Origin: an uncultured Chromatiaceae bacterium
GTDB lineage: Bacteria; Pseudomonadota; Gammaproteobacteria; Tenderiales; Tenderiaceae
Reading direction: 5' to 3'
Assembly (NCBI GenBank): GCA_947259785.1
Contig: CAMYNQ010000093.1
Location: 1-11,843, forward strand
Length of the DNA: 11,843 nt
Shown: in pieces, positions 3,308 through 11,321 of the stretch
Layout: every line of letters begins with the position of its first letter
Position numbering within the stretch: the first letter of the stretch is position 1
Made by a program: the position numbers and the translations under genes
Notes under the pieces: model-generated
The model's database searches: none
The model's input: only the letters and a program-made list of their open reading frames with translations
What the model was told of the DNA's origin: nothing

Positions 3308-4462
3308 TCACAACTTCATTGTTGAAGGACTTTTAACTAAGTCCTTCATTACACCTTCCAGACCGGAGTAGACATTGATATTGCCGATACGCTCGGTCAC
3401 TTTTTCCAACACTTCCAACTCCTTTAGACGCATTAAGGTTGGGTTGCCTTCAATCATCTTGGCAGTATTATGCAACGAGCGTGTCGCCGCGGTCTCTTCA
3501 CGCCGCTTGATCAAATTAGCCTCCGCCGCCTTTTCTGCCTCAACAACCTGATTGAGGATGGTCTTCATATCACCAGGCAAAATGATGTCACGCACACCGA
3601 CACTCTTGACCGAGATACCGTGCTCCTCAACTCGCTGACGGATACCGTCAGTCATCACCTTGTTCAGTGCATCTTTATCGTTCAGCAACTGGTCCAAAGT
3701 TTTGGTGCCTACTGCTTCACGCAGCTGCAACTGAAACTCCCGGTACAGGTAATCGTTGAAATCCGCCAGCTTGCTCTGAGCCAGCTGTGGATCTTCCACC
3801 TTATAAGCAGCAGAAAGGTTAAGCCTCAGGCTCACCCGATCTTTAGTCAAAATCTCCTGACCACTGACCTCGACATTCTGCAAACGCAGGTCAATGTGCT
3901 TGACCACAACATTACGATGATACTTCCAGTAGCCGTAGCTACCTGGCTGCAACAACGCTTCCAGTTTGCCGTTGACCAACAGTAGACCGACATGATTATC
4001 TTCCACTTCGGTGTAGTAGATGGTCTTAGACGCACTGCGCACCAACTGTGTGTTATGACCGCGGCCCAGCAGTGCCAGCAACGCCTTCGACACACGGAAG
4101 TCCTCAGTGATATCAACACGCTTCAACTCGATCTTCTCTAGACCCTTCCAGTAGATTTTGAAACTACCTGGCGCGACGATATCGACCAGCAGACCATCGT
4201 GGTACAACAGCCCCACCTCATAGTCGCTGAGCTGATACGCCTCAAGGTAACCTCGAGTCTTATCGGCAAAGGTAGAAACCAAAAACTTACCCAGACTGTG
4301 ATCCAACTCATGACGAGTGATATCAAAGCGCTCAGTTTTTACATTGCCAAGCAGATCGACGTAACGATACCTTCCTGGCTCAAGGACACCCGCAAAGCGA
4401 TTCTTCTTAAACAGGAAGGCCCTTTCGTTATCTGCAACATCTATTCTTTTAACGAAAAACAT
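3308..4462 (-). CDS. SPFH/band-7 (stomatin/slipin-like) protein with extended repeated N-terminal region and no predicted TM segment
   Basis: The C-terminal half has a typical SPFH core and coiled-coil (…ILPGDMKTILNQVVEAEKAAEANLIKRREETAA…NPTLMRLKELEVLEKV…). The start is moved to MFFVKRID (ATG complement at 4460-4462) because a GGAGG Shine-Dalgarno sits 5 nt upstream on the minus strand. The longer ORF-track start at 4501 has no Shine-Dalgarno. Confidence 0.8.
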   Translation of the reverse strand: MFFVKRIDVADNERAFLFKKNRFAGVLEPGRYRYVDLLGNVKTERFDITRHELDHSLGKFLVSTFADKTRGYLEAYQLSDYEVGLLYHDGLLVDIVAPGSFKIYWKGLEKIELKRVDITEDFRVSKALLALLGRGHNTQLVRSASKTIYYTEVEDNHVGLLLVNGKLEALLQPGSYGYWKYHRNVVVKHIDLRLQNVEVSGQEILTKDRVSLRLNLSAAYKVEDPQLAQSKLADFNDYLYREFQLQLREAVGTKTLDQLLNDKDALNKVMTDGIRQRVEEHGISVKSVGVRDIILPGDMKTILNQVVEAEKAAEANLIKRREETAATRSLHNTAKMIEGNPTLMRLKELEVLEKVTERIGNINVYSGLEGVMKDLVKSPSTMKL

Positions 4463-4704
4463 AATGCCTCCTAAATTATTATTACTTTTAAAGTCGGGCA
4501 CCCTCCATTGCAGGGGCGGAATATGACATTCAACAAACAGGAATGACTACTGAGAGGTTAATCGAATCATTGCCCAATATTCGTCTGTACAAGCCCGAAC
4601 ATACCTACCAATGCTCGAAGAACTTCAACGCCATTCGCGCCCACCAAAGCGGTCACACTCGGTCACTGCCACGTTGTTTAAAGTGAAATACCACTTCACA
4701 TCAA

Positions 4705-4718
4705 ACAAGGGTGCCCTT
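4705..4718 (-). terminator. candidate intrinsic terminator hairpin (CAAGG-GCAC-CCTTG followed by UUUGAUG) downstream of the tRNA-like element
   Basis: Read directly on the minus strand. A 5-bp GC-containing stem is followed by a short U-tract. A second hairpin (GUGAA-N7-UUCAC, then UUUAAA) follows at about 4680-4700. Confidence 0.3.
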
Positions 4719-4721
4719 GGT

Positions 4722-4858
4722 TTACTACATGAGGGGAGTCGAACCCCAGCCCGAAGGCTTTCCCTAAACACGTTTAACAGACGTGTGCTTTCGACCGGAT
4801 TCGAACCGGCAACCCACTGATAACTATCAGTTGCTCTACCCGATTGAGCTACTAAGCA
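4722..4858 (-). ncRNA. compound tRNA-like element with two tandem tRNA-like domains in the 3' region of the rtcBA transcript; not a canonical tRNA
   Basis: Minus-strand domain 1 (4858-4786) has a U8-A9 junction, D-arm GCUC-AAUCGGGUA-GAGC, hairpin ACUGA-UAGUUA-UCAGU and T-arm GCCGG-UUCGAAU-CCGGU. Its acceptor pairs for only 5 bp. Domain 2 (4785-4731) has ACACGU-CUGUUAA-ACGUGU (an Asn-type anticodon loop), AGCC-UUCG-GGCU and a second T-arm GGGG-UUCGACU-CCCC. Neither domain has an encoded CCA. Confidence 0.45.
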
Positions 4859-5072
4859 GTGTTTAGCCTCTTGACTGTATTGGTACACATATCACCAAAG
4901 GTGGATGCGCCAGACCAGATTTGGAACCGGAACCGCTAACACAGGCAAGTCATGCCAAACTCTTTTGGTCTGCATGTCATTCAAGCTTGATTCAACATGC
5001 AAACAACATTCTTTAATACGTGGCCGAACAACCCATTTTGCCCGGCCATTTCTCCTAGCCCTAAACTTCAGG

Positions 5073-5119
5073 ATAAGTACCTTAGAAATATTTTCTAAAA
5101 ATAAAAACATTTCTTAGGT
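5073..5119 (-). repeat. 47-nt near-perfect inverted repeat (14-bp arms, 19-nt A/U loop) immediately 3' of the rtcA stop codon
   Basis: Arms agtaccttagaaat (5073-5086) and atttcttaggtact (5106-5119) are complementary except for one position. The element starts 2 nt after the rtcA stop on the minus strand. It is not followed by a U-tract. Confidence 0.5.
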
Positions 5120-5120
5120 A

Positions 5121-6131
5121 CTAAATACGGATCTCCCATAGATCCTTGGCCAACCCTTCAAATTCAAAACGTTTATCCGTAAAGAGATGGATCACATCTC
5201 TATTAGTTTGGCTATGTAGGCTTGGCTTCAAAGTACGAAACACACCACCGCCACCAATTGCCATGGGCAACATCAGCTGATCCGCCAAGTGTTCACCCAC
5301 AGGCACTGCCGCGGCCTGATAACGACGAATGGCCTGGATCGCTCTACGCGCCACCTTCTCTGCTGACACACCTACCTTTCCAACATATTCAACCACTTCG
5401 GAGCAACATTCGTGATGCAAACGCATGGAAACGATATTGCCACTGCCCATGCTCTCCACTCTTTCAGACTTCAACACCTCCTCAGGCCATTTACATTGCT
5501 TAGCGATCTCAGCCAACTCCCGCACAGCTACATGACCGGGAATATTGGCGCTTGTCACTACGGCCTCTTTACCAATCAATACACCTGCGTCCAACAAGTC
5601 CAGGCCACTTAAACGACCTGCAGGTTTAATCACCGCCTGCCATTGGCCACCACCCTGCGGATAAAACCCGTGACGGGTCATTTTCAATTCGATCTCAACA
5701 CCCATCTGCCTTAACAGTGGCGCATACACCAAAGCAATAAAATCAAAACTCGGCGCAAAGAAGTTGTGGGTGCCACCTTCAAAACTCAGTCTGGACTCAG
5801 CCTCTGCCAGCGCCAGGGCAGGCAGCACGGTTTGAAATATCAACGTCGTGCTACCCGCAGTACCCACAGCGAAATGATATTCGCCTGCCTTAATCGCCTT
5901 CGGCTTGAAGACGATCTCGGTGGAGCCCACTTCTGCACCGCTTACCTTTGCATTGCTCACTGCTTGTGCTGCTTTTACACAAGCTAGGTGCTGACGCATT
6001 AATCCCGGCTTCACACGACCGGCACGGATGTTTTCAATCCGAATCTCCGTACCAGTCACCATCGCCATGGTTAATGAGGTTCGTAAAATCTGACCTCCGC
6101 CCTCACCTTGTGAACCATCAACAACCAACAT
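5121..6131 (-). CDS. rtcA: RNA 3'-terminal phosphate cyclase RtcA
   Basis: N-terminus [27 protein letters not shown]…[15 protein letters not shown] aligns residue-for-residue with E. coli RtcA (…[24 protein letters not shown]…IRAGRAKPGLLRQHL). 336 aa. It lies immediately downstream of rtcB. Confidence 0.93.
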   Translation of the reverse strand: [336 protein letters not shown]

Positions 6132-6186: not shown

Positions 6187-7425
6187 TCAACCCTTCACAC
6201 AAACCACCTGACGCAGCGTATGCACAATCTCGACCAGATCCTTCTGCGCTTCCATCACCTGATCAATCGGCTTGTAGGCAGCAGGGGTCTCGTCAATCAC
6301 ACCCGCATCCTTACGACATTCAACACCCGCAGTAGCAGCTACATGCTCGTCAAGACTAACTACTTTCTTAGCCTGGGTGCGGGACATTACCCGCCCCGCA
6401 CCATGACTGCAGCTATGGAAACTTTCATCGTTCCCAAGACCACGTACAATAAAGGAGCGCGCTCCCATGCTACCGGGAATGATGCCGAACTCATCTTTGC
6501 GGGTACGCACTGCACCTTTACGTGTAACCAGCACATTCTCACCATAATGGTTCTCACGTGAGACATAGTTGTGGTGACAGTTAACCGCATGAGCATGTGT
6601 CTCAAACGCAATCGGCATTTCACTACGTACTGCAGCAATCACCCGCGCCATCATTACTTCGCGGTTAATACGCGCATACTCCTGCGCCCACTCCACCGCT
6701 TCCACATACTGCTTAAAGTGATCGCTACCCTCTGGCAGATACGCCAAATCTTTATCGGGCAGGTTCACAAACCAGCGTTCCATATCCTTCTTGGCCACTT
6801 CTATAAAGTGTGTGCCGATACGGTTACCGACACCACGTGATCCGCTATGCAGCATGAACCAAACGTCATCACCCTCATCTAGACATACCTCAATAAAATG
6901 GTTTCCAGTACCCAAGGTTCCTAAATGATTCACGTTGTTAGTATTCTTTAACAACTTGTGCTGCTCACACAGGCGATCAAAACTAGGCATCAATACCTTC
7001 CAAGCCGCCGCAACATCTGTAGGCAGATCACCCCAAGCACCTTTATCACGCTTGGGCATTCGACGACTGCGTGAGGAAGACCGGCCATGCGGCACAGCCG
7101 TTTCAATCGCTGCGCGAATACCGCTCAGATTATCCGGCAGCTGACCCGCCTTCAGCGAAGTCTTCACTGCCATCATGCCGCAACCAATATCCACACCCAC
7201 AGCCGCTGGGATTACCGCGCCAATGGTGGGAACCACGCTACCAATAGTGGCTCCTTTTCCCAGGTGTACATCCGGCATCACCGACACCCACTTGTGAATG
7301 AAGGGAAGGCTCGCGATGTTTCTCAGCTGTTGACGCGCTTGCTCCTCAAAAGGAACACCCTTGGTCCAGGACTTAATGGGGGCACCACCATGGTCACTCA
7401 TCACTTCGTAAGATGTTTCACACAT
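6187..7425 (-). CDS. rtcB: RNA-splicing ligase RtcB (3'-phosphate/5'-hydroxyl RNA ligase), paralogue 1
   Basis: Conserved RtcB blocks are present: KSWTKGVPFEE, MPDVHLGKGATIGSVVPT, AAVGVDIGCGM, GTGNHFIEV, LHSGSRGVGN, NCHHNY, IPGSMG and CSHGAGR (the His nucleophile context). AAGGAAG Shine-Dalgarno lies 7 nt before the ATG at 7425. An alternative start lies 8 codons downstream at 7401 (MSDHGG). Confidence 0.93.
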   Translation of the reverse strand: MCETSYEVMSDHGGAPIKSWTKGVPFEEQARQQLRNIASLPFIHKWVSVMPDVHLGKGATIGSVVPTIGAVIPAAVGVDIGCGMMAVKTSLKAGQLPDNLSGIRAAIETAVPHGRSSSRSRRMPKRDKGAWGDLPTDVAAAWKVLMPSFDRLCEQHKLLKNTNNVNHLGTLGTGNHFIEVCLDEGDDVWFMLHSGSRGVGNRIGTHFIEVAKKDMERWFVNLPDKDLAYLPEGSDHFKQYVEAVEWAQEYARINREVMMARVIAAVRSEMPIAFETHAHAVNCHHNYVSRENHYGENVLVTRKGAVRTRKDEFGIIPGSMGARSFIVRGLGNDESFHSCSHGAGRVMSRTQAKKVVSLDEHVAATAGVECRKDAGVIDETPAAYKPIDQVMEAQKDLVEIVHTLRQVVCVKG

Positions 7426-7480: not shown

Positions 7481-7497
7481 ATTGCAGCTGCCGTGCC
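7481..7497 (-). promoter_or_regulatory. sigma-54 (-24/-12) promoter for rtcBA: CTGGCACGGCAGCTGCA on the minus strand
   Basis: Matches the consensus YTGGCACGrNNNTTGCW with correct GG-N10-GC spacing. It lies about 55 nt upstream of the rtcB start and points toward it. rtcBA is a known sigma-54/RtcR-dependent operon in E. coli. A second TGGCA half-site sits just upstream at 7505-7509 (minus strand). Confidence 0.7.
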
Positions 7498-7643
7498 AGC
7501 TTTCTTGCCAGACAATAAAACACTTTCAACCAACTGATTTTATTTAAATATTTCAGACTAGAACAAACAACTGGTAACACCGAGCTATTTTGGCCATAAT
7601 TCCTAATATATCTATTTCGATATTTTGATATTTAATTTGATAT

Positions 7644-9233
7644 ATGAAGACTGTTGCAATCAGCTTATTGGGCACCGTACTGGACCAGAGGGGCAGAGGA
7701 AAAAAGCGTTGGGATAAATGGCGCCCTACTATCTCCCTCTGTCAGCAGGAAGATCTGCTGATCGACCGCATGGAGTTGGTGTTTCAGCCACACTTCCAAC
7801 GTTTGGCTGACCTCGTCACAGAGGACATTCAACGCGTATCGCCTGAAACCGAAGTCCGACACCACCATGTCGAATTTGAAGACCCCTGGGACTTTGAAGA
7901 GGTCTACGGCAGTCTCCATGACTTCTCCCGCCAATACGGCTTCGACCGCGACAAAGAAGAGTATTTAATCCATATCACCACCGGCACCCATGTAGCTCAG
8001 ATCTGCCTATACCTGCTAACCGAGGCGAACTACCTCCCCGGCCGCTTAGTACAAACCTCCCCAGCCAACCGAGACAACGTTGATGCCGGTAGTTATCAGA
8101 TTATTGATCTTGATCTATCGAAATATGATCAAATCGCCTCACGCTTTTCCCGTGAACACAGCGAAGGCACAATCTATTTGAAAGGCGGCATTGAAACAAA
8201 AAACAAAGAATTCAACCGCGTCATTGCACAGCTGGAAAAGATCTCGATCAACTCTGAAGATCCCATTCTACTCACTGGCCCAACCGGTGCAGGCAAATCA
8301 CAACTGGCCAAACGCATCTATCAACTCAAACAAACACGCGCCCAAGTAAAAGGACGTTTGGTGGAAGTAAACTGTGCCACCCTGCGTGGCGACAATGCCA
8401 TGTCTGCCCTATTTGGCCATAAGAAAGGTGCATTCACCGGCGCAGCCACACAACGTGCGGGACTGTTACTCGAAGCCCACGATGGCATATTATTTCTGGA
8501 TGAAATCGGCGAACTAGGTATAGACGAACAGGCCATGTTATTACGTGCCATCGAAGACAAAAACTTCATGCCCTTCGGCTCAGATACACCCGTCAGCAGT
8601 AACTTTCAACTAATAGCCGGTACCAATCGCGACCTATTTGATGACAGTCGCAGTGGTAAATTCCGCGAAGACCTGTTGGCCAGAATCAATCTCTGGACCT
8701 ATCGCCTACCCTCACTCAAAGAACGCATCGAAGATTTAGAAGTTAACCTGGATTACGAATTGGAACGCTTCGCCCAAAAAGCAGGCTCCCTAGTCAGCTT
8801 CAATAAAGCGGCACGCAGCCGGTACATGAAATTCGCTCACAGCAGTGAAGCCACATGGCGTGCAAACTTCCGCGACCTTAATGCCAGCATCACCCGTTTG
8901 GCTACCCTTTCTGACGGCGGGCGTATTACCCAAGCAGCTGTCGATGATGAAATAATGCGCCTGAAACACGACTGGTCCGCCAAATCACAAGAAATGAACC
9001 CAAAAGCAATCACGGCGAAATTTCTTGACGATGAAACACACACCAAACTGGATCTGTTTGATCATATCCAACTGACCGGTATTGCCAAGGTATGTAAGAG
9101 CGCCAAATCAATGGCTGAGGCTGGCCGGATATTGTTTGACCAAAGTCGGGAACAGAAGAAGTCAGTGAATGACAGTCATCGCCTGAAGCAGTTACTAGCA
9201 AAGTATGGACTGGATTTTAGTATATTTAAATAA
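7644..9233 (+). CDS. rtcR: sigma-54-dependent transcriptional activator RtcR (N-terminal CARF sensor, AAA+ domain with GAFTGA, C-terminal HTH)
   Basis: Collinear with E. coli RtcR across the whole length (MKTVA…GTVLD…RWDKWRPT…CQQE…YLIHITTGTHVAQIC…PTGAGKS…GAFTGA…FLDEIGEL…FREDLLARINLW…RLKQLLAKYGLD). 529 aa. Divergent from rtcBA. Confidence 0.93.
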   Translation: MKTVAISLLGTVLDQRGRGKKRWDKWRPTISLCQQEDLLIDRMELVFQPHFQRLADLVTEDIQRVSPETEVRHHHVEFEDPWDFEEVYGSLHDFSRQYGFDRDKEEYLIHITTGTHVAQICLYLLTEANYLPGRLVQTSPANRDNVDAGSYQIIDLDLSKYDQIASRFSREHSEGTIYLKGGIETKNKEFNRVIAQLEKISINSEDPILLTGPTGAGKSQLAKRIYQLKQTRAQVKGRLVEVNCATLRGDNAMSALFGHKKGAFTGAATQRAGLLLEAHDGILFLDEIGELGIDEQAMLLRAIEDKNFMPFGSDTPVSSNFQLIAGTNRDLFDDSRSGKFREDLLARINLWTYRLPSLKERIEDLEVNLDYELERFAQKAGSLVSFNKAARSRYMKFAHSSEATWRANFRDLNASITRLATLSDGGRITQAAVDDEIMRLKHDWSAKSQEMNPKAITAKFLDDETHTKLDLFDHIQLTGIAKVCKSAKSMAEAGRILFDQSREQKKSVNDSHRLKQLLAKYGLDFSIFK

Positions 9234-9700: not shown

Positions 9701-10147
9701 ATGAACAATTCAAAACAATGGCTCAAGAAAGCCAAACAGCTATGTGACGAGCTAGGCCCGGAAGACGGGATCGATCCGCGTATTTTGGCGCGGGCACTAG
9801 ACACTAAAACAAAAAGTCATAAAAGCCAGCAATTATGCAAAGAGGCAAAACATACGCTGTCGCTGGTACTAGCAGGAGAACTCAGTGACCCAACGCTACA
9901 GAATCTGGGTGTAGTTGATGTCACGACAAATGATGACGGTCAGTTTCTTTTTGTTTCAGTCAGTCACATAGATACCGGCATAGTGCCGGATGAGAATCAA
10001 ACACTAAACAAACTGCAAGCAATACAGGGCTATCTTCGCTCTGCCATTGCTCAATCAGTAAAGCGAAAACGAGTGCCCGCTCTTAAGTTTCAATTGGTGC
10101 GGCCACCCAATGAGGTAAACAGTGATGCCTATTCAAAAAACAATTAG
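9701..10147 (+). CDS. RbfA-family (ribosome-binding factor A, type-II KH fold) paralogue with ~38-aa N-terminal extension, coupled to RtcB2
   Basis: Residues 41-131 align without gaps to E. coli RbfA residues 10-100. Shared motifs include ELSDPTLQ/EIKDPRLG, VVDVTTNDDGQFLFVSVS/VSGVEMSRDLAYAKVYVT, QGYLRSAIAQ/SGFIRSLLGK and KRKRVPALKFQL/MRLRIVPELTFF. GGAG Shine-Dalgarno lies 6 nt upstream. The 3' end overlaps the RtcB2 start by 23 nt. The housekeeping rbfA normally lies in the nusA-infB operon, so this is an extra copy. Confidence 0.6.
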   Translation: MNNSKQWLKKAKQLCDELGPEDGIDPRILARALDTKTKSHKSQQLCKEAKHTLSLVLAGELSDPTLQNLGVVDVTTNDDGQFLFVSVSHIDTGIVPDENQTLNKLQAIQGYLRSAIAQSVKRKRVPALKFQLVRPPNEVNSDAYSKNN

Positions 10148-11321
10148 CAAAGGCAAAGTACCGGTAAAGATCTATACCGATGAAGTTGAGCACGGCGCGA
10201 TGCAGCAGCTCTATAACATCGCACAGCTGCCGTTCATTCACAGCCATATTGCGGCCATGCCGGACGTACACCTGGGAAAAGGTGCCACGGTGGGATCTGT
10301 CATCCCCACCAAAGGTGCCATCATCCCTGCGGCAGTGGGTGTGGATATCGGCTGCGGTATGAACGCTATTCGTCTGTCGATTAAGGCCAAGGACTTGCCG
10401 GACAATCTACGAGCGATGCGCCTGGCGATCGAAGAAGCGATTCCGGTTGGTTTCAACATGCACAAATCAGATCGTGCACGTCAATCAACCATACGAGCAC
10501 TTTCTGGTGGACTGGATCAGATCATCGGCAAACACAAAAAGATCTACTCAATGCAAAAGAAGCCGTATCAAACCTGGATTCGCCAAATCGGTACGCTGGG
10601 TGGTGGCAACCACTTCATTGAGCTATGCCTGGATGAAAACGATGATGTCTGGGTGATGCTGCATTCTGGTAGTCGCGGTGTGGGTAATGTCATCGGTCAG
10701 TACTTTATCAATTTGGCAAAGAAGGATATGGGACAGCATATCGTCAATCTGCCAGACAAAGACCTGGCTTACTTCACTGAAGGGGCCAAGTACTTTGATG
10801 ATTATGTCGAAGCAGTTGAATGGGCGCAAGACTACGCCATGGCTAACCGGCGCGAGATGATGCACTTCATTCTCAAGGCACTGCGTAAGAAGCTACCAAA
10901 GTTTGGCATCACAAAAGAGGCCATTAACTGCCATCACAACTATGTGTCGCAGGAAGTTCATTTCGGTGAAAAAGTGTTTGTCACCCGCAAAGGTGCCATT
11001 CGTGCAGGTTTGGATGAGCTTGGCATTATTCCCGGCAGCATGGGCGCTAAGTCGTTCATTGTACGCGGCAAGGGTAATCCACAGTCATTCTGCTCTTGCT
11101 CGCATGGCGCAGGCAGAAAGATGAGCCGTAGTGCCGCCAAGCGTGAGTTTGGTGAACAGGATGTTATCCACCAGACCGAAGGCGTTGAATGCCGAAAGGA
11201 CAAAGGGATCATTGATGAGATCCCTAGTGCCTACAAAGACATCGACAAAGTAATGGAGCATCAGAGCGATCTGATTGAAGTAGTACATACGCTGAAACAA
11301 GTCGTATGCGTTAAGGGCTAG
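10125..11321 (+). CDS. RtcB-family RNA ligase, paralogue 2 (RtcB2)
   Basis: All catalytic blocks are conserved (MPDVHLGKGATVGSVIPT, AAVGVDIGCGM, GGGNHFIEL, LHSGSRGVGN, NCHHNYV, IPGSMG, CSCSHGAGR). It is about 60-65% identical to the upstream RtcB over the conserved blocks but diverges in the residue ~100-160 segment. GAGG Shine-Dalgarno lies 9 nt before ATG 10125; the GTG at 10122 is less likely. Confidence 0.9.
   Translation: MPIQKTISKGKVPVKIYTDEVEHGAMQQLYNIAQLPFIHSHIAAMPDVHLGKGATVGSVIPTKGAIIPAAVGVDIGCGMNAIRLSIKAKDLPDNLRAMRLAIEEAIPVGFNMHKSDRARQSTIRALSGGLDQIIGKHKKIYSMQKKPYQTWIRQIGTLGGGNHFIELCLDENDDVWVMLHSGSRGVGNVIGQYFINLAKKDMGQHIVNLPDKDLAYFTEGAKYFDDYVEAVEWAQDYAMANRREMMHFILKALRKKLPKFGITKEAINCHHNYVSQEVHFGEKVFVTRKGAIRAGLDELGIIPGSMGAKSFIVRGKGNPQSFCSCSHGAGRKMSRSAAKREFGEQDVIHQTEGVECRKDKGIIDEIPSAYKDIDKVMEHQSDLIEVVHTLKQVVCVKG

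Follow-up and report, generated by a model that had tools for sequence, protein, structure and literature searches.

A tRNA-like element in an rtcBA cluster is predicted to be the core of a larger structured RNA linked to a slipin gene

What bacterial RtcB repairs, and why tRNA-shaped RNAs travel with RtcB, is an open question in the field. From a contig of an uncultured Chromatiaceae bacterium (CAMYNQ010000093.1, assembly GCA_947259785.1), we analyzed a stretch of 11,843 nt, here called the window. On its minus strand, a 137-nt element made of tRNA-like parts begins 263 nt past the rtcA stop codon, in agreement with an earlier, sequence-only reading of this DNA, which had put it about 260 nt 3' of rtcA on the same strand. 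That reading had also seen in it a tRNA mimic within a cluster of RNA-repair genes (rtcB, rtcA, and rtcR), on the strand of the operon, and this description holds. The genes and signals of the cluster are as follows.

7644-9233, divergent from rtcB: rtcR
7483..7498, minus strand: sigma-54-type promoter TGGCACGGCAGCTGCA, 58 nt 5' of rtcB, with one mismatch to TGGCAC-N5-TTGCW
7425..6187, minus strand: rtcB (Pfam RtcB, 2.3e-130)
6131..5121, minus strand: rtcA (Pfam RTC, 1.3e-77)
4472-4467, minus strand: ribosome-binding site AGGAGG, 5' of the slipin ATG
4462 (ATG) to 3308 (stop), minus strand: slipin (SPFH/Band-7) coding sequence, 384 aa (Pfam Band_7, 1.7e-29)

The putative promoter is likely the RtcR-dependent start of a transcript that would run through rtcB, rtcA, the RNA, and the slipin gene, the start codon of which was set by alignment to homologues of 383 to 384 aa.

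All of the parts that had been named in the element, two T-arms, a D-arm, hairpins with GUU-centered loops, and a UUCG hairpin, are present on the minus strand at 4858..4722, where we find the following arrangement.

4786..4858, minus strand: tRNA-like cloverleaf 1, with D-arm, T-arm, 6-nt "anticodon" loop, defective acceptor stem, and no CCA
4858-4852, minus strand: acceptor 5' strand, UGCUUAG
4849-4833, minus strand: D-arm, GCUC-AAUCGGGUA-GAGC
4831-4816, minus strand: stem ACUGA/UCAGU with the 6-nt loop UAGUUA
4810-4794, minus strand: T-arm 1, GCCGG-UUCGAAU-CCGGU
4793-4786, minus strand: acceptor 3' strand, CGAAAGC-A, without CCA after it
4769..4785, minus strand: H2, an anticodon-arm-like hairpin, CACGU-CUGUUAA-ACGUG (5-bp stem, 7-nt loop)
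4749..4758, minus strand: H3, a small GC hairpin, GCC-UUCG-GGC, with a conserved GGnAAAG before it
4733..4748, minus strand: T-arm 2, (U)GGGG-UUCGACU-CCCC

An Rfam search had been proposed as a check that might reveal a bona fide tRNA. The tRNA model (RF00005) does score above its threshold, with 40.8 bits at 4857..4786 against a gathering score of 29 (E = 6e-6 for the whole window), but a bona fide tRNA is not what it finds: ARAGORN reports no tRNA gene in the window, the anticodon-like loop has 6 nt, the acceptor stem consists of five pairs, an A.A mismatch, a bulged G, and one closing G-C pair, and CCA is lacking. The element had thus been rightly described as something other than a normal tRNA.

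We compared 15 distinct loci, the window included, whose slipin proteins are 55 to 95% identical to that of the window; all are proteobacterial and the majority are metagenomic, so the sample is narrow. For two of them (L125 and L135), the sequence begins at the RNA, with nothing upstream of it. Rfam tRNA scores in the related loci range from 34.9 to 67.7 bits, and ARAGORN calls a tRNA at the cloverleaf position in 10 of the 14 other copies, twice without an assignable anticodon. Across the 15 loci, 92.7% of alignment cells in cloverleaf 1 pair, the D-stem is invariant, and the acceptor pairs 5:68 and 6:67 are frequently broken. The anticodon position reads GUU, UUG, UUU, AGU, GAA, CAU, or AAU in orthologous copies, and in other copies a tetraloop, a loop of 6 nt, or a 38-nt insertion takes the place of the anticodon loop. 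To our knowledge, bacterial tRNAs with the anticodon AGU or AAU are rarely if ever encoded. Judged from these alignments, the conserved part of the tRNA shape is the elbow (D-arm plus T-arm), not the anticodon loop. Of the 15 cloverleafs, that of the window is the most degenerate and could be losing whatever function the tRNA-like part has.

H2, H3, and T-arm 2 make up a second, partial tRNA. The H2 stem, read from the sequences of the loci, covaries (CACGU/ACGUG, GUCGA/UCGAC, ACCGA/UCGGU, GUCGU/ACGAC, and CACAU/AUGUG); its loop sequence is not kept among loci, and the hairpin is absent altogether in L125. In H3, 84% of cells pair and two of the three pairs are altered on both sides, and T-arm 2 occurs in every one of the 15 loci, with 92% of its cells paired.

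The 137-nt unit of the sequence-only reading proved too short, as conserved structure starts at about 5004 (or, in the near clade, at 5047) and continues to 4496. The comparison indicates that the tRNA-like element is the middle of a folded RNA of about 510 to 550 nt, lying at about 5047/5004 to 4496 on the minus strand, with these flanking parts.

5022..5047, minus strand: hairpin GGCCGGGCAA-AAUGGG-UUGUUCGGCC, in the near clade only, with no U-tract after it
4968..5004, minus strand: P0 hairpin GUUUGCAUGU...ACAUGCAGAC, then the A-rich linker CCAAAAGA
4851..4967, minus strand: 5' domain, a three-way junction (111.5 bits with covariance model R1)
4960-4955 paired with 4866-4861, minus strand: P1
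4944-4939 paired with 4880-4875, minus strand: P2
4938-4911, minus strand: P3, with the conserved bulge GCGG and the loop UUCCAAAU
4903-4893, minus strand: P4
4889-4881, minus strand: conserved single strand UGUGUACCA
4496..4716, minus strand: 3' domain, an irregular rod of about 200 nt enclosed by the long-range helix P10
4716-4707 (GGGCACCCUU) paired with 4505-4496 (GAGGGUGCCC), minus strand: P10

The order of the parts is fixed, from P0 through the 5' domain, cloverleaf 1, and then H2, H3, and T-arm 2 to the rod. Helices throughout the RNA are upheld by compensatory changes, apart from the invariant D-stem of the cloverleaf and P0, which was judged by eye only: read in this way, a hairpin of differing sequence stands 8 to 12 nt 5' of P1 in all 15 loci. 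The hairpin at 5022..5047 is shared by L001, L002, L125, L129, and the window, and L129 shows compensatory changes in it (GGCCGGGUAC/GUACCUGGCC). In the 5' domain, 88.3% of cells pair in a plain MAFFT alignment, compared to 29 to 44% when the partners are slid, and 90.5% pair in a model-fitted alignment; 17 of the 24 pairs are altered on both sides, and none of 500 shuffles reached the observed values. Only 2 nt separate P1 from the acceptor stem of the cloverleaf. A GGCA/UGCC hairpin between P1 and P2 was rejected, because the near clade has it without variation and the other loci lack it.

For the 3' domain, RNAduplex on long flanks was dropped because of spurious long extensions and weak z-scores, and each locus was searched for its best contiguous helix instead. 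The P10 boxes are that helix in 15 of 15 loci, with eight pairs kept in all of them and 9 of the 10 pairs covarying, though the paired percentage of P10 is inflated because the segments were picked as the best complementary pair. The interior of P10 measures 196 to 265 nt and folds as a rod in RNAalifold, with compensatory changes in 57 of 79 pairs in the subgroup of the window and in 21 of 31 in a second subgroup. The other loci gave no support to an alternative 8-bp pairing between CUGUGUUAG and CUGGCGCA of the window, and it was set aside. Thermodynamics alone does not reveal the structure, since the minimum free energy fold of a 171-nt stretch taken by itself is as stable as that of shuffled sequence (z = -0.28); for a 436-nt stretch, z = -3.7. 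We also rejected a protein-coding reading of an 87-aa open reading frame at 4625-4888, because the lengths of indels there are not divisible by three and this stretch forms structured RNA.

A terminator had been proposed directly after the element, where a consensus scan flags one hairpin as terminator-like.

4706..4719, minus strand: local hairpin CAAGGG-CA-CCCUUG, then UUUG

These bases overlap the 5' strand of the covarying helix P10, and a hairpin plus U-run at this position is not kept in the other loci, of which none passes the scan as the window copy does. In L134, moreover, the RNA and the slipin gene precede rtcA, so that transcription must pass the position there. Bases 4719..4706 are thus better read as the 5' strand of P10 than as an intrinsic terminator, and the RNA is probably not followed by one.

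The RNA had been tied to rtcA; we found instead that its constant partner is the downstream slipin gene (3308-4462), which the sequence-only reading had not noticed. In all 15 loci, whatever the places of rtcB and rtcA, a gene for a soluble SPFH/Band-7 protein (slipin) follows the RNA directly on the same strand. The order is rtcR-rtcB-rtcA-RNA-slipin in the window, L001, L002, L126, and L129, rtcB-RNA-slipin-rtcA in L134, and HNH-RNA-slipin in L128, L132, L136, and L138. RtcB is encoded inside the fetched region in 9 or 10 of the 15 close loci (among the window, L001, L002, L126, L129, L132, L133, L134, L136, and L137), and the distant loci L140 and L142 also encode it; none is found within 8 kb in L128, L131, or L138, and L131 has no rtc gene at all within that distance. 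The 5'-domain model R1 scores between 69 and 111 bits (rounded) in each of the 15 close loci and returned nothing at E <= 1 from a negative control of 905 kb of tRNA-rich viral DNA (100 stretches).

Beyond these loci, R1 gives only 17.5 bits on a Photobacterium relative, and a similar arrangement is kept around distant slipins (42 to 47% identical) of Photobacterium, Burkholderia, and Escherichia coli: an RtcR gene or sigma-54-type promoter, a leader with T-arm or tRNA-like modules, slipin, and then RtcB and/or RlaP. About 30% of complete E. coli genomes have a reduced version that follows a sigma-54-type promoter, and K-12 probably lacks it. Candidate cultivable carriers are Microbulbifer variabilis (L134), Photobacterium sp. 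GJ3, Burkholderia cenocepacia, and E. coli isolates that have the yjbD-lysC island. The window RNA itself had no match in E. coli genomes (distant mode) or in phages and only two in plasmids, both from Listeria, covering the D-to-T segment of the tRNA-like part with no annotated feature beneath. An RtcA-anchored genome scan returned four loci, two of them useful, and a core-specific pattern returned L125 as its only metagenomic locus and nothing from viral contigs. The looser pattern of a T-arm, 40 to 56 nt, and a T-arm occurs in more than 120 viral stretches, of which 100 formed the R1 control, and no slipin relatives were found in viral contigs.

[quoted passage not shown] According to Wang et al. 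(2018, bioRxiv 10.1101/312249), some bacteria encode RtcB beside a Band-7 protein and a predicted tRNA-like noncoding RNA, the b7a-tRNA, which occasionally adjoins Rsr and was proposed to be functionally redundant with YrlA, a prediction that was not validated; the passage of that preprint on this class credits a Y-RNA-like role to Burroughs and Aravind. A literature search for later work on b7a-tRNA found only that preprint, and Rfam holds no b7a-tRNA family. The RNA of the window is very probably a member of this class, as the tRNA-shaped core of a slipin-linked RNA, a match made through the account of Wang et al. Like the b7a-tRNA, it has a cloverleaf in noncoding DNA, adjoins an SPFH/Band-7 gene, and lies in the neighborhood of RtcB; one difference is that the window copy is more degenerate than the phrase "strongly resembles an authentic tRNA" implies.

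We see about an even chance that the best overall explanation, a b7a-type RNA serving as the RNA partner of slipin and driven by RtcR and sigma-54, is correct. In the mechanism that we propose for it, which we would rate somewhat short of even, RNA damage would activate RtcR, and the RtcR/sigma-54 transcript of rtcB, rtcA, the RNA, and slipin in the window would carry the RNA. The RNA would then be the RNA subunit of a slipin ribonucleoprotein, as Y RNA serves Ro60, its 5' and 3' domains holding the slipin oligomer and its tRNA-shaped module acting as a docking site for the tRNA-directed repair enzymes of the gene neighborhood (RtcB, RtcA, RlaP, and the CCA-adding enzyme); it would not decode. 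The N-terminus of slipin, read from its sequence, has no evident hydrophobic segment. An AlphaFold2 model (mean pLDDT, 83) combines beta-strand repeats and an SPFH domain with a long helix, and among structure matches in the PDB only the major vault protein aligns across the whole model, N-terminal repeats included (414 to 463 columns, E of about 1e-10), with an identity of 14 to 15% and low TM-scores. The slipin model resembles cage-forming SPFH proteins.

The strict position of the RNA 5' of slipin, on the same strand and with P10 close to the ribosome-binding site, would fit equally well if the RNA were a purely cis-acting leader or processing signal, that is, the 5' untranslated region of the slipin mRNA with no role in trans. 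In this reading, the tRNA-like module would work in the manner of tRNA punctuation: cleavage there by RNase P and 3' processing enzymes would separate the slipin mRNA from the rtcBA mRNA and set the stability or translation of the slipin mRNA. P10 ends 26 to 99 nt 5' of the start codon, the RNA is the first transcribed element past the RtcR gene or sigma-54-type promoter in Photobacterium, Burkholderia, and E. coli, and five copies (L128, L133, L135, L137, and L138) encode an N-CCA past the acceptor stem, like processed tRNA genes. However, more than 500 nt in three covarying domains exceeds the needs of a processing site or translational operator, the ribosome-binding site is outside every conserved helix, and the flanking domains persist even though H2 can be missing (L125) and the number of tRNA-like modules differs among loci. 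We regard a leader of this kind as unlikely, though the likeliest of the rival readings.

Several loci have arrays of four to nine real tRNA genes just upstream of the RNA, including those for Asn, His, Lys, Gln, Tyr, Phe, and Arg, isoacceptors that include known anticodon-nuclease targets. These arrays would suit a decoy or competitive inhibitor of anticodon nucleases or tRNA-targeting toxins, or a damage sensor repaired by RtcB, but anticodon nucleases recognize the anticodon loop, which is the least conserved part of the RNA, and the large flanking domains and the link to slipin would be left unexplained, making this role improbable. A YrlA-type Y RNA whose Ro60/Rsr partner would be encoded at another site of the genome is less credible still, in spite of the rtcBA cluster, the tRNA-like module, and the occasional b7a-tRNA beside Rsr: YrlA (RF02553) scores 19.6 bits on the window against a cutoff of 69 and has no match at E <= 0.05 in L139, L140, or L142, the cloverleaf has normal topology rather than a permuted order with a Ro-binding stem, and, as had been noted before, no rsr lies nearby, with no TROVE/Rsr gene among the ten largest open reading frames of the window or the called genes of the eleven loci tabled with Pfam. 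The earlier suggestion of a Y-RNA analogue thus survives as the role proposed for the class by Burroughs and Aravind and fails as an assignment to YrlA. Least probable of all are a tRNA that still functions in decoding and the relic of one, whether a decayed gene, such as the tRNA-Asn remnant once considered, or an integration scar, since the Rfam score and the ARAGORN calls in other copies are outweighed by the defects of the window copy, by an anticodon identity that shifts between orthologous copies around an invariant D-arm, by the conserved domains that abut the acceptor stem, and by compensatory changes, which show selection for structure and so argue against decay.

Returning to the slipin ribonucleoprotein, a bolder version, which is speculative and which we consider unlikely as a whole, is that the b7a-tRNA is the visible core of an undescribed RNA of more than 500 nt that co-assembles, possibly during transcription, with an MVP-shaped soluble slipin into a vault- or Ro-like cage with one or two tRNA-shaped handles for RtcB, RtcA, RlaP, and the CCA-adding enzyme in tRNA or rRNA repair. 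If true, such cages would form a new class among bacterial ribonucleoproteins, and E. coli would have a natural version of it; if the reduced E. coli version is related, natural E. coli isolates could be used for experiments. What is added here is a set of boundaries and a covariation-backed secondary structure for an RNA much larger than its tRNA-like part, the rule that the RNA precedes a slipin gene, a covariance model that recognizes all 15 close relatives, and the conservation of the elbow.

Among known systems, the tRNA-like domain of tmRNA, mascRNA, and viral tRNA-like structures share with this RNA a mimicry of the T-arm and acceptor that recruits tRNA-processing or tRNA-binding proteins; in Rfam, only T-arm fragments match (12.8 bits for tmRNA and 16.2 bits for mascRNA), and architecture and gene context differ. 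The vault, composed of the major vault protein, vault RNA, and the TROVE protein TEP1, resembles the proposed slipin ribonucleoprotein in pairing a small structured RNA with a cage-forming protein that has beta-strand repeats at its N-terminus, an SPFH-like shoulder, and a long helix, but vault RNAs lack this kind of tRNA likeness, and slipin oligomerization and RNA binding are predictions; the likeness is one of analogy and not of membership. YrlA and other bacterial Y RNAs with Ro60 (Rsr) are also noncoding RNAs with a tRNA-mimicking module, encoded in rtcBA operons and with a presumed role in tethering effectors to a scaffold protein. YrlA (Chen et al. 2014) has about 110 nt in a permuted order (T-arm, closed acceptor stem, and D-arm) and a Ro-binding stem, whereas the slipin-linked RNA is about five times larger, keeps the normal order of the cloverleaf, and has no Ro gene nearby. 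The window offers a clean example of what would be a Band-7-associated counterpart to the Ro/Y-RNA system.

Positions 4858..4722 (-) of the window contain all of the sequence features named in the sequence-only reading: a D-arm and two T-arms (GGUUCGAAUCC and GGUUCGACUCC), one stem capped by a 6-nt UAGUUA loop, a second hairpin whose 5-bp stem carries the 7-nt loop CUGUUAA, a GC hairpin with a UUCG cap, and an acceptor stem of 5 pairs with a mismatch and a bulge, with no CCA after it. The Rfam tRNA model matched 4857..4786 (-) at 40.8 bits (cut-off, 29), and ARAGORN called 0 tRNAs in the whole window; together with the 6-nt loop, the defective acceptor, and the missing CCA, this bears out the view that the element is not a normal tRNA. 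We also found that the 137 nt originally outlined is too narrow, as conserved parts extend from hairpin P0 (5004) to helix P10 (4496), and that this larger RNA is followed by a gene for an SPFH/Band-7 protein ("slipin"), a link absent from the earlier account. The genes and the parts of the RNA are as follows.

7644-9233 (+), rtcR
7425..6187 (-), rtcB
6131..5121 (-), rtcA
5004-4968 (-), P0 hairpin, with an A-rich linker next
4967-4851 (-), 5' domain
4960-4955 with 4866-4861 (-), P1, GUUUGG:CUAAAC, 2 nt before the acceptor stem
4944-4939 with 4880-4875 (-), P2, closing a three-way junction
4938-4911 (-), P3, with a conserved 5' bulge GCGG and a terminal loop beginning UUC
4903-4893 (-), P4, small hairpin
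4889-4881 (-), conserved single strand, UGUGUACCA
4858-4786 (-), tRNA-like cloverleaf
4785-4769 (-), H2, anticodon-arm-like hairpin, missing in locus L125
4758-4749 (-), H3, small GC hairpin
4748-4733 (-), T-arm 2
4716-4707 with 4505-4496 (-), P10, long-range helix enclosing 196-265 nt across loci
4462..3308 (-), SPFH/Band-7 slipin gene

Homologues of 383-384 aa were used to place the slipin start at ATG 4462, which AGGAGG precedes, and the end of P10 is 26-99 nt from the slipin start codon across loci. RNAalifold folds the stretch enclosed by P10 into an irregular rod. Upstream of rtcB, at a distance of 58 nt, is the sigma-54-type site TGGCACGGCAGCTGCA. Immediately past the rtcA stop is a near-perfect AT-rich inverted repeat of ~20 bp (5073-5123 (-); AGUACCUAAGAAAUGUUUUU...AGAAAAUAUUUCUAAGGUACU), which is missing at the same place in the related loci L001 and L002, gave only chance miRNA matches in Rfam, and could represent either a transcription-blocking stem or a small insertion. 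The window also encodes a second RtcB paralogue (10122-11321 (+); Pfam RtcB, 6.9e-132), preceded and overlapped by an ORF of 148 aa that carries the domain of ribosome-binding factor A, RbfA (PF02033, 5.3e-12; both within 9701-11321 (+)). This pair recalls the known RtcB2-PrfH ribosome-repair pair, and no tRNA-like RNA was found beside this paralogue.

An RtcA-anchored genome scan yielded two gammaproteobacterial metagenome-assembled genomes in which the ~600-nt rtcA-slipin spacer is kept entire (mean column identity, 77%), a pattern scan added one further metagenome locus (L125), and the contexts of the remaining loci were fetched with slipin homologues as anchors. The same RNA lies directly 5' of slipin, on the same strand, in 15 distinct loci (slipin identity, 55-95%), with these gene orders.

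rtcR-rtcB-rtcA-RNA-slipin: the window and others
rtcB-RNA-slipin-rtcA: L134, Microbulbifer variabilis
rtcB-ORF-RNA-slipin: L133
tRNA array-HNH-RNA-slipin: L128, L132, L136, L138

In L137, an opposite-strand 187-aa ORF with no assignment occupies the position of the HNH gene (~186-190 aa in the other four), and L131 has no rtc gene within 8 kb. Since the upstream genes vary and slipin is always 3' of the RNA, the constant partner is the slipin gene and not rtcA.

The arrays 5' of the RNA-slipin pair hold 4-9 ordinary tRNA genes (L128 5841-6681; L132 6286-6724; L136 5696-6523; L137 6769-7258; L138 4457-6358), with isoacceptors for Asn, His, Lys, Gln, Phe, Leu, Tyr, Arg, Pro, Gly, Glu, and Met. 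Deletion of trcR in Anabaena jointly derepresses rtcB, a tRNA operon, and the genes for an HNH protein and a slipin (PMC10272220). A large repair island 3' of slipin in L136 (9219-15738) encodes a protein of 556 aa whose only match, to HEAT_2, is faint, an HD-domain enzyme of the CCA-adding or poly(A) polymerase family, RlaP, another RtcB, and a PrfH-like protein of the RF-1 family; in L137, a CCA-adding-type enzyme and RlaP adjoin rtcR. Past the RlaP gene of L129 is a group II intron domain (10913-11134; RF02005, 172.8 bits).

In a plain MAFFT alignment of the 5' domain, 88.3% of cells were paired, compared to 29-44% with slid partners, both-side changes occurred in 17 of 24 pairs, and the observed values were reached by 0 of 500 shuffles. 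The model-fitted alignment gave 90.5% (27-43% with slid partners), and the cloverleaf, H3, and T-arm 2 gave 92.7% (33-48%); the D-stem of the cloverleaf is invariant, and acceptor pairs 5:68 and 6:67 are frequently broken. The P10 segments were chosen as the best complementary pair, which biases their paired fraction (92%, versus 43-65% with slid partners) but leaves the covariation of homologous positions unbiased; 9 of 10 pairs covary, and 8 pairs are preserved in 15/15 loci. Within the rod, compensatory changes affect 57 of 79 predicted pairs in the window subgroup and 21 of 31 in a second subgroup. R1, a covariance model of the 5' domain, scored 69-111 bits in all close loci and gave no match at E <= 1 on 905 kb of tRNA-rich viral DNA.

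Five copies (L128, L133, L135, L137, and L138) encode N-CCA directly 3' of the acceptor stem, just 5' of H2, where the window clade has CACG; the encoded N-CCA suggests possible processing of some copies into RNAs with a tRNA-like 3' end. The "anticodon" arm of L129 (7596-7633) carries a 38-nt insertion that lengthens its stem.

We propose that activation of RtcR would lead to transcription of the RNA together with the repair operon, that the RNA would join slipin in a ribonucleoprotein as its RNA subunit, and that its conserved D/T elbow could offer a tRNA-shaped handle to RtcB, RtcA, RlaP, or a CCA-adding enzyme. RlaP and the CCA-adding enzyme recur in the islands of L129, L136, L137, L140, and E. 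coli. The chief alternative is that the RNA works purely in cis, as a leader or a processing signal; its strict placement 5' of slipin and a closing helix close to the ribosome-binding site fit this alternative equally well, and the two readings are compatible. The RNA is not YrlA, as it falls short of the Rfam model (19.6 bits; cut-off, 69), the topology is that of a normal cloverleaf, and no rsr gene is nearby: Pfam found no TROVE/Rsr domain among the ten largest window ORFs, in keeping with the original remark that no rsr was visible, nor was rsr among the called genes of eleven loci with Pfam tables. Nor is it the decayed tRNA-Asn remnant or integration scar that had also been suggested, as the compensatory changes show that selection maintains the structure. 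A decoding role is rejected as well: the orthologous copies are assigned by ARAGORN to Asn, Lys, Thr(AGU), Phe, Met, or Ile(AAU), or receive no anticodon, and some have a 6-nt loop, a tetraloop, or the 38-nt insertion, with the D-arm invariant in all; to our knowledge, AGU and AAU anticodons occur rarely if ever in tRNAs of bacterial genomes. A conserved terminator after the element can be dismissed, since the terminator-like hairpin flagged by a consensus scan at 4719..4706 (-) is the 5' strand of P10 and, with rtcA located past the RNA and slipin in L134, transcription there must cross this position.

Large "plasmid" records yielded more distant relatives, with slipin identities of 34-47%.

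L142, Photobacterium sp. GJ3: rtcR; divergently, a weak 5'-domain match, two complete tandem tRNA-like cloverleaves, slipin, rtcB; RNA at 5677-5818
L140, Burkholderia cenocepacia: rtcR; divergently, an extra T-arm 5' of a tRNA-like with a GAAA tetraloop in place of the anticodon loop, slipin, rtcB, RlaP; RNA at 5630-5740
L139 and L143, E. coli: sigma-54-type promoter (TGGCACGCTTCTCGCA), leader with a single T-arm (AUGGGUUCGAUUCCCAC), slipin, RlaP; leader at L139 5690-6003 and L143 3501-3851

In both L142 and L140, rtcR is followed by the RNA and slipin and only then by rtcB, and the two loci differ in how many modules they have and in how these are ordered. Across Photobacterium, Burkholderia, and E. 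coli, the number of tRNA-shaped modules therefore varies, and the second "half tRNA" of the window family probably comes from a second full cloverleaf. The E. coli leader has no D-arm in L139 or L143 and may represent a relative of the window RNA in reduced form. Its island (slipin, RlaP nucleotidyltransferase, and a zeta-toxin family gene, between yjbD and lysC) has no RNA annotation, is present in 1,632 of 5,426 complete genomes, and is possibly a convenient experimental system. The comparison shows a covarying architecture, an unvarying order in which the RNA precedes slipin, and, for several lineages, a setting with RtcR or sigma-54.

Read by eye, the slipin sequence shows no evident N-terminal hydrophobic segment. 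Its AlphaFold2 model (mean pLDDT, 83) comprises beta-strand repeats (three beta-hairpin repeats in the first ~190 residues), an SPFH domain, and a long helix. Foldseek aligned the model with stomatin, HflK/C, and prohibitin over ~250 columns, and in the PDB only major vault protein hits spanned the full model, with 414-463 columns including the N-terminal repeats (E about 1e-10), a weak but suggestive analogy to the RNA-carrying vault cage. As pure speculation, the P3 bulge and UUC loop recall the paired T-loop modules with which T-box stem I and RNase P recognize the elbows of tRNAs.

A 2016 abstract reportedly proposed that SPFH/Band-7 and Ro/TROVE proteins are scaffolding cofactors and that each has its cognate RNA. 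According to a later preprint (Wang et al. 2018, bioRxiv 10.1101/312249), some bacteria encode RtcB beside a Band-7 protein and a predicted, unvalidated Band-7-associated tRNA-like RNA (b7a-tRNA), which appears interchangeable with YrlA. Judged by sequence, the window element has the context and cloverleaf of the b7a-tRNA class as known from these two sources, and it is a member of this known, predicted-only class. Rfam 15 holds no b7a-tRNA family, and our literature search found no work on it later than that preprint. The larger structured RNA with its flanking domains may be new, and as defined here it is open to direct testing. The idea of a tRNA mimic in an RNA-repair operon, analogous to Y RNA, stands, but it was wrong as to boundaries, terminator, and partner gene.
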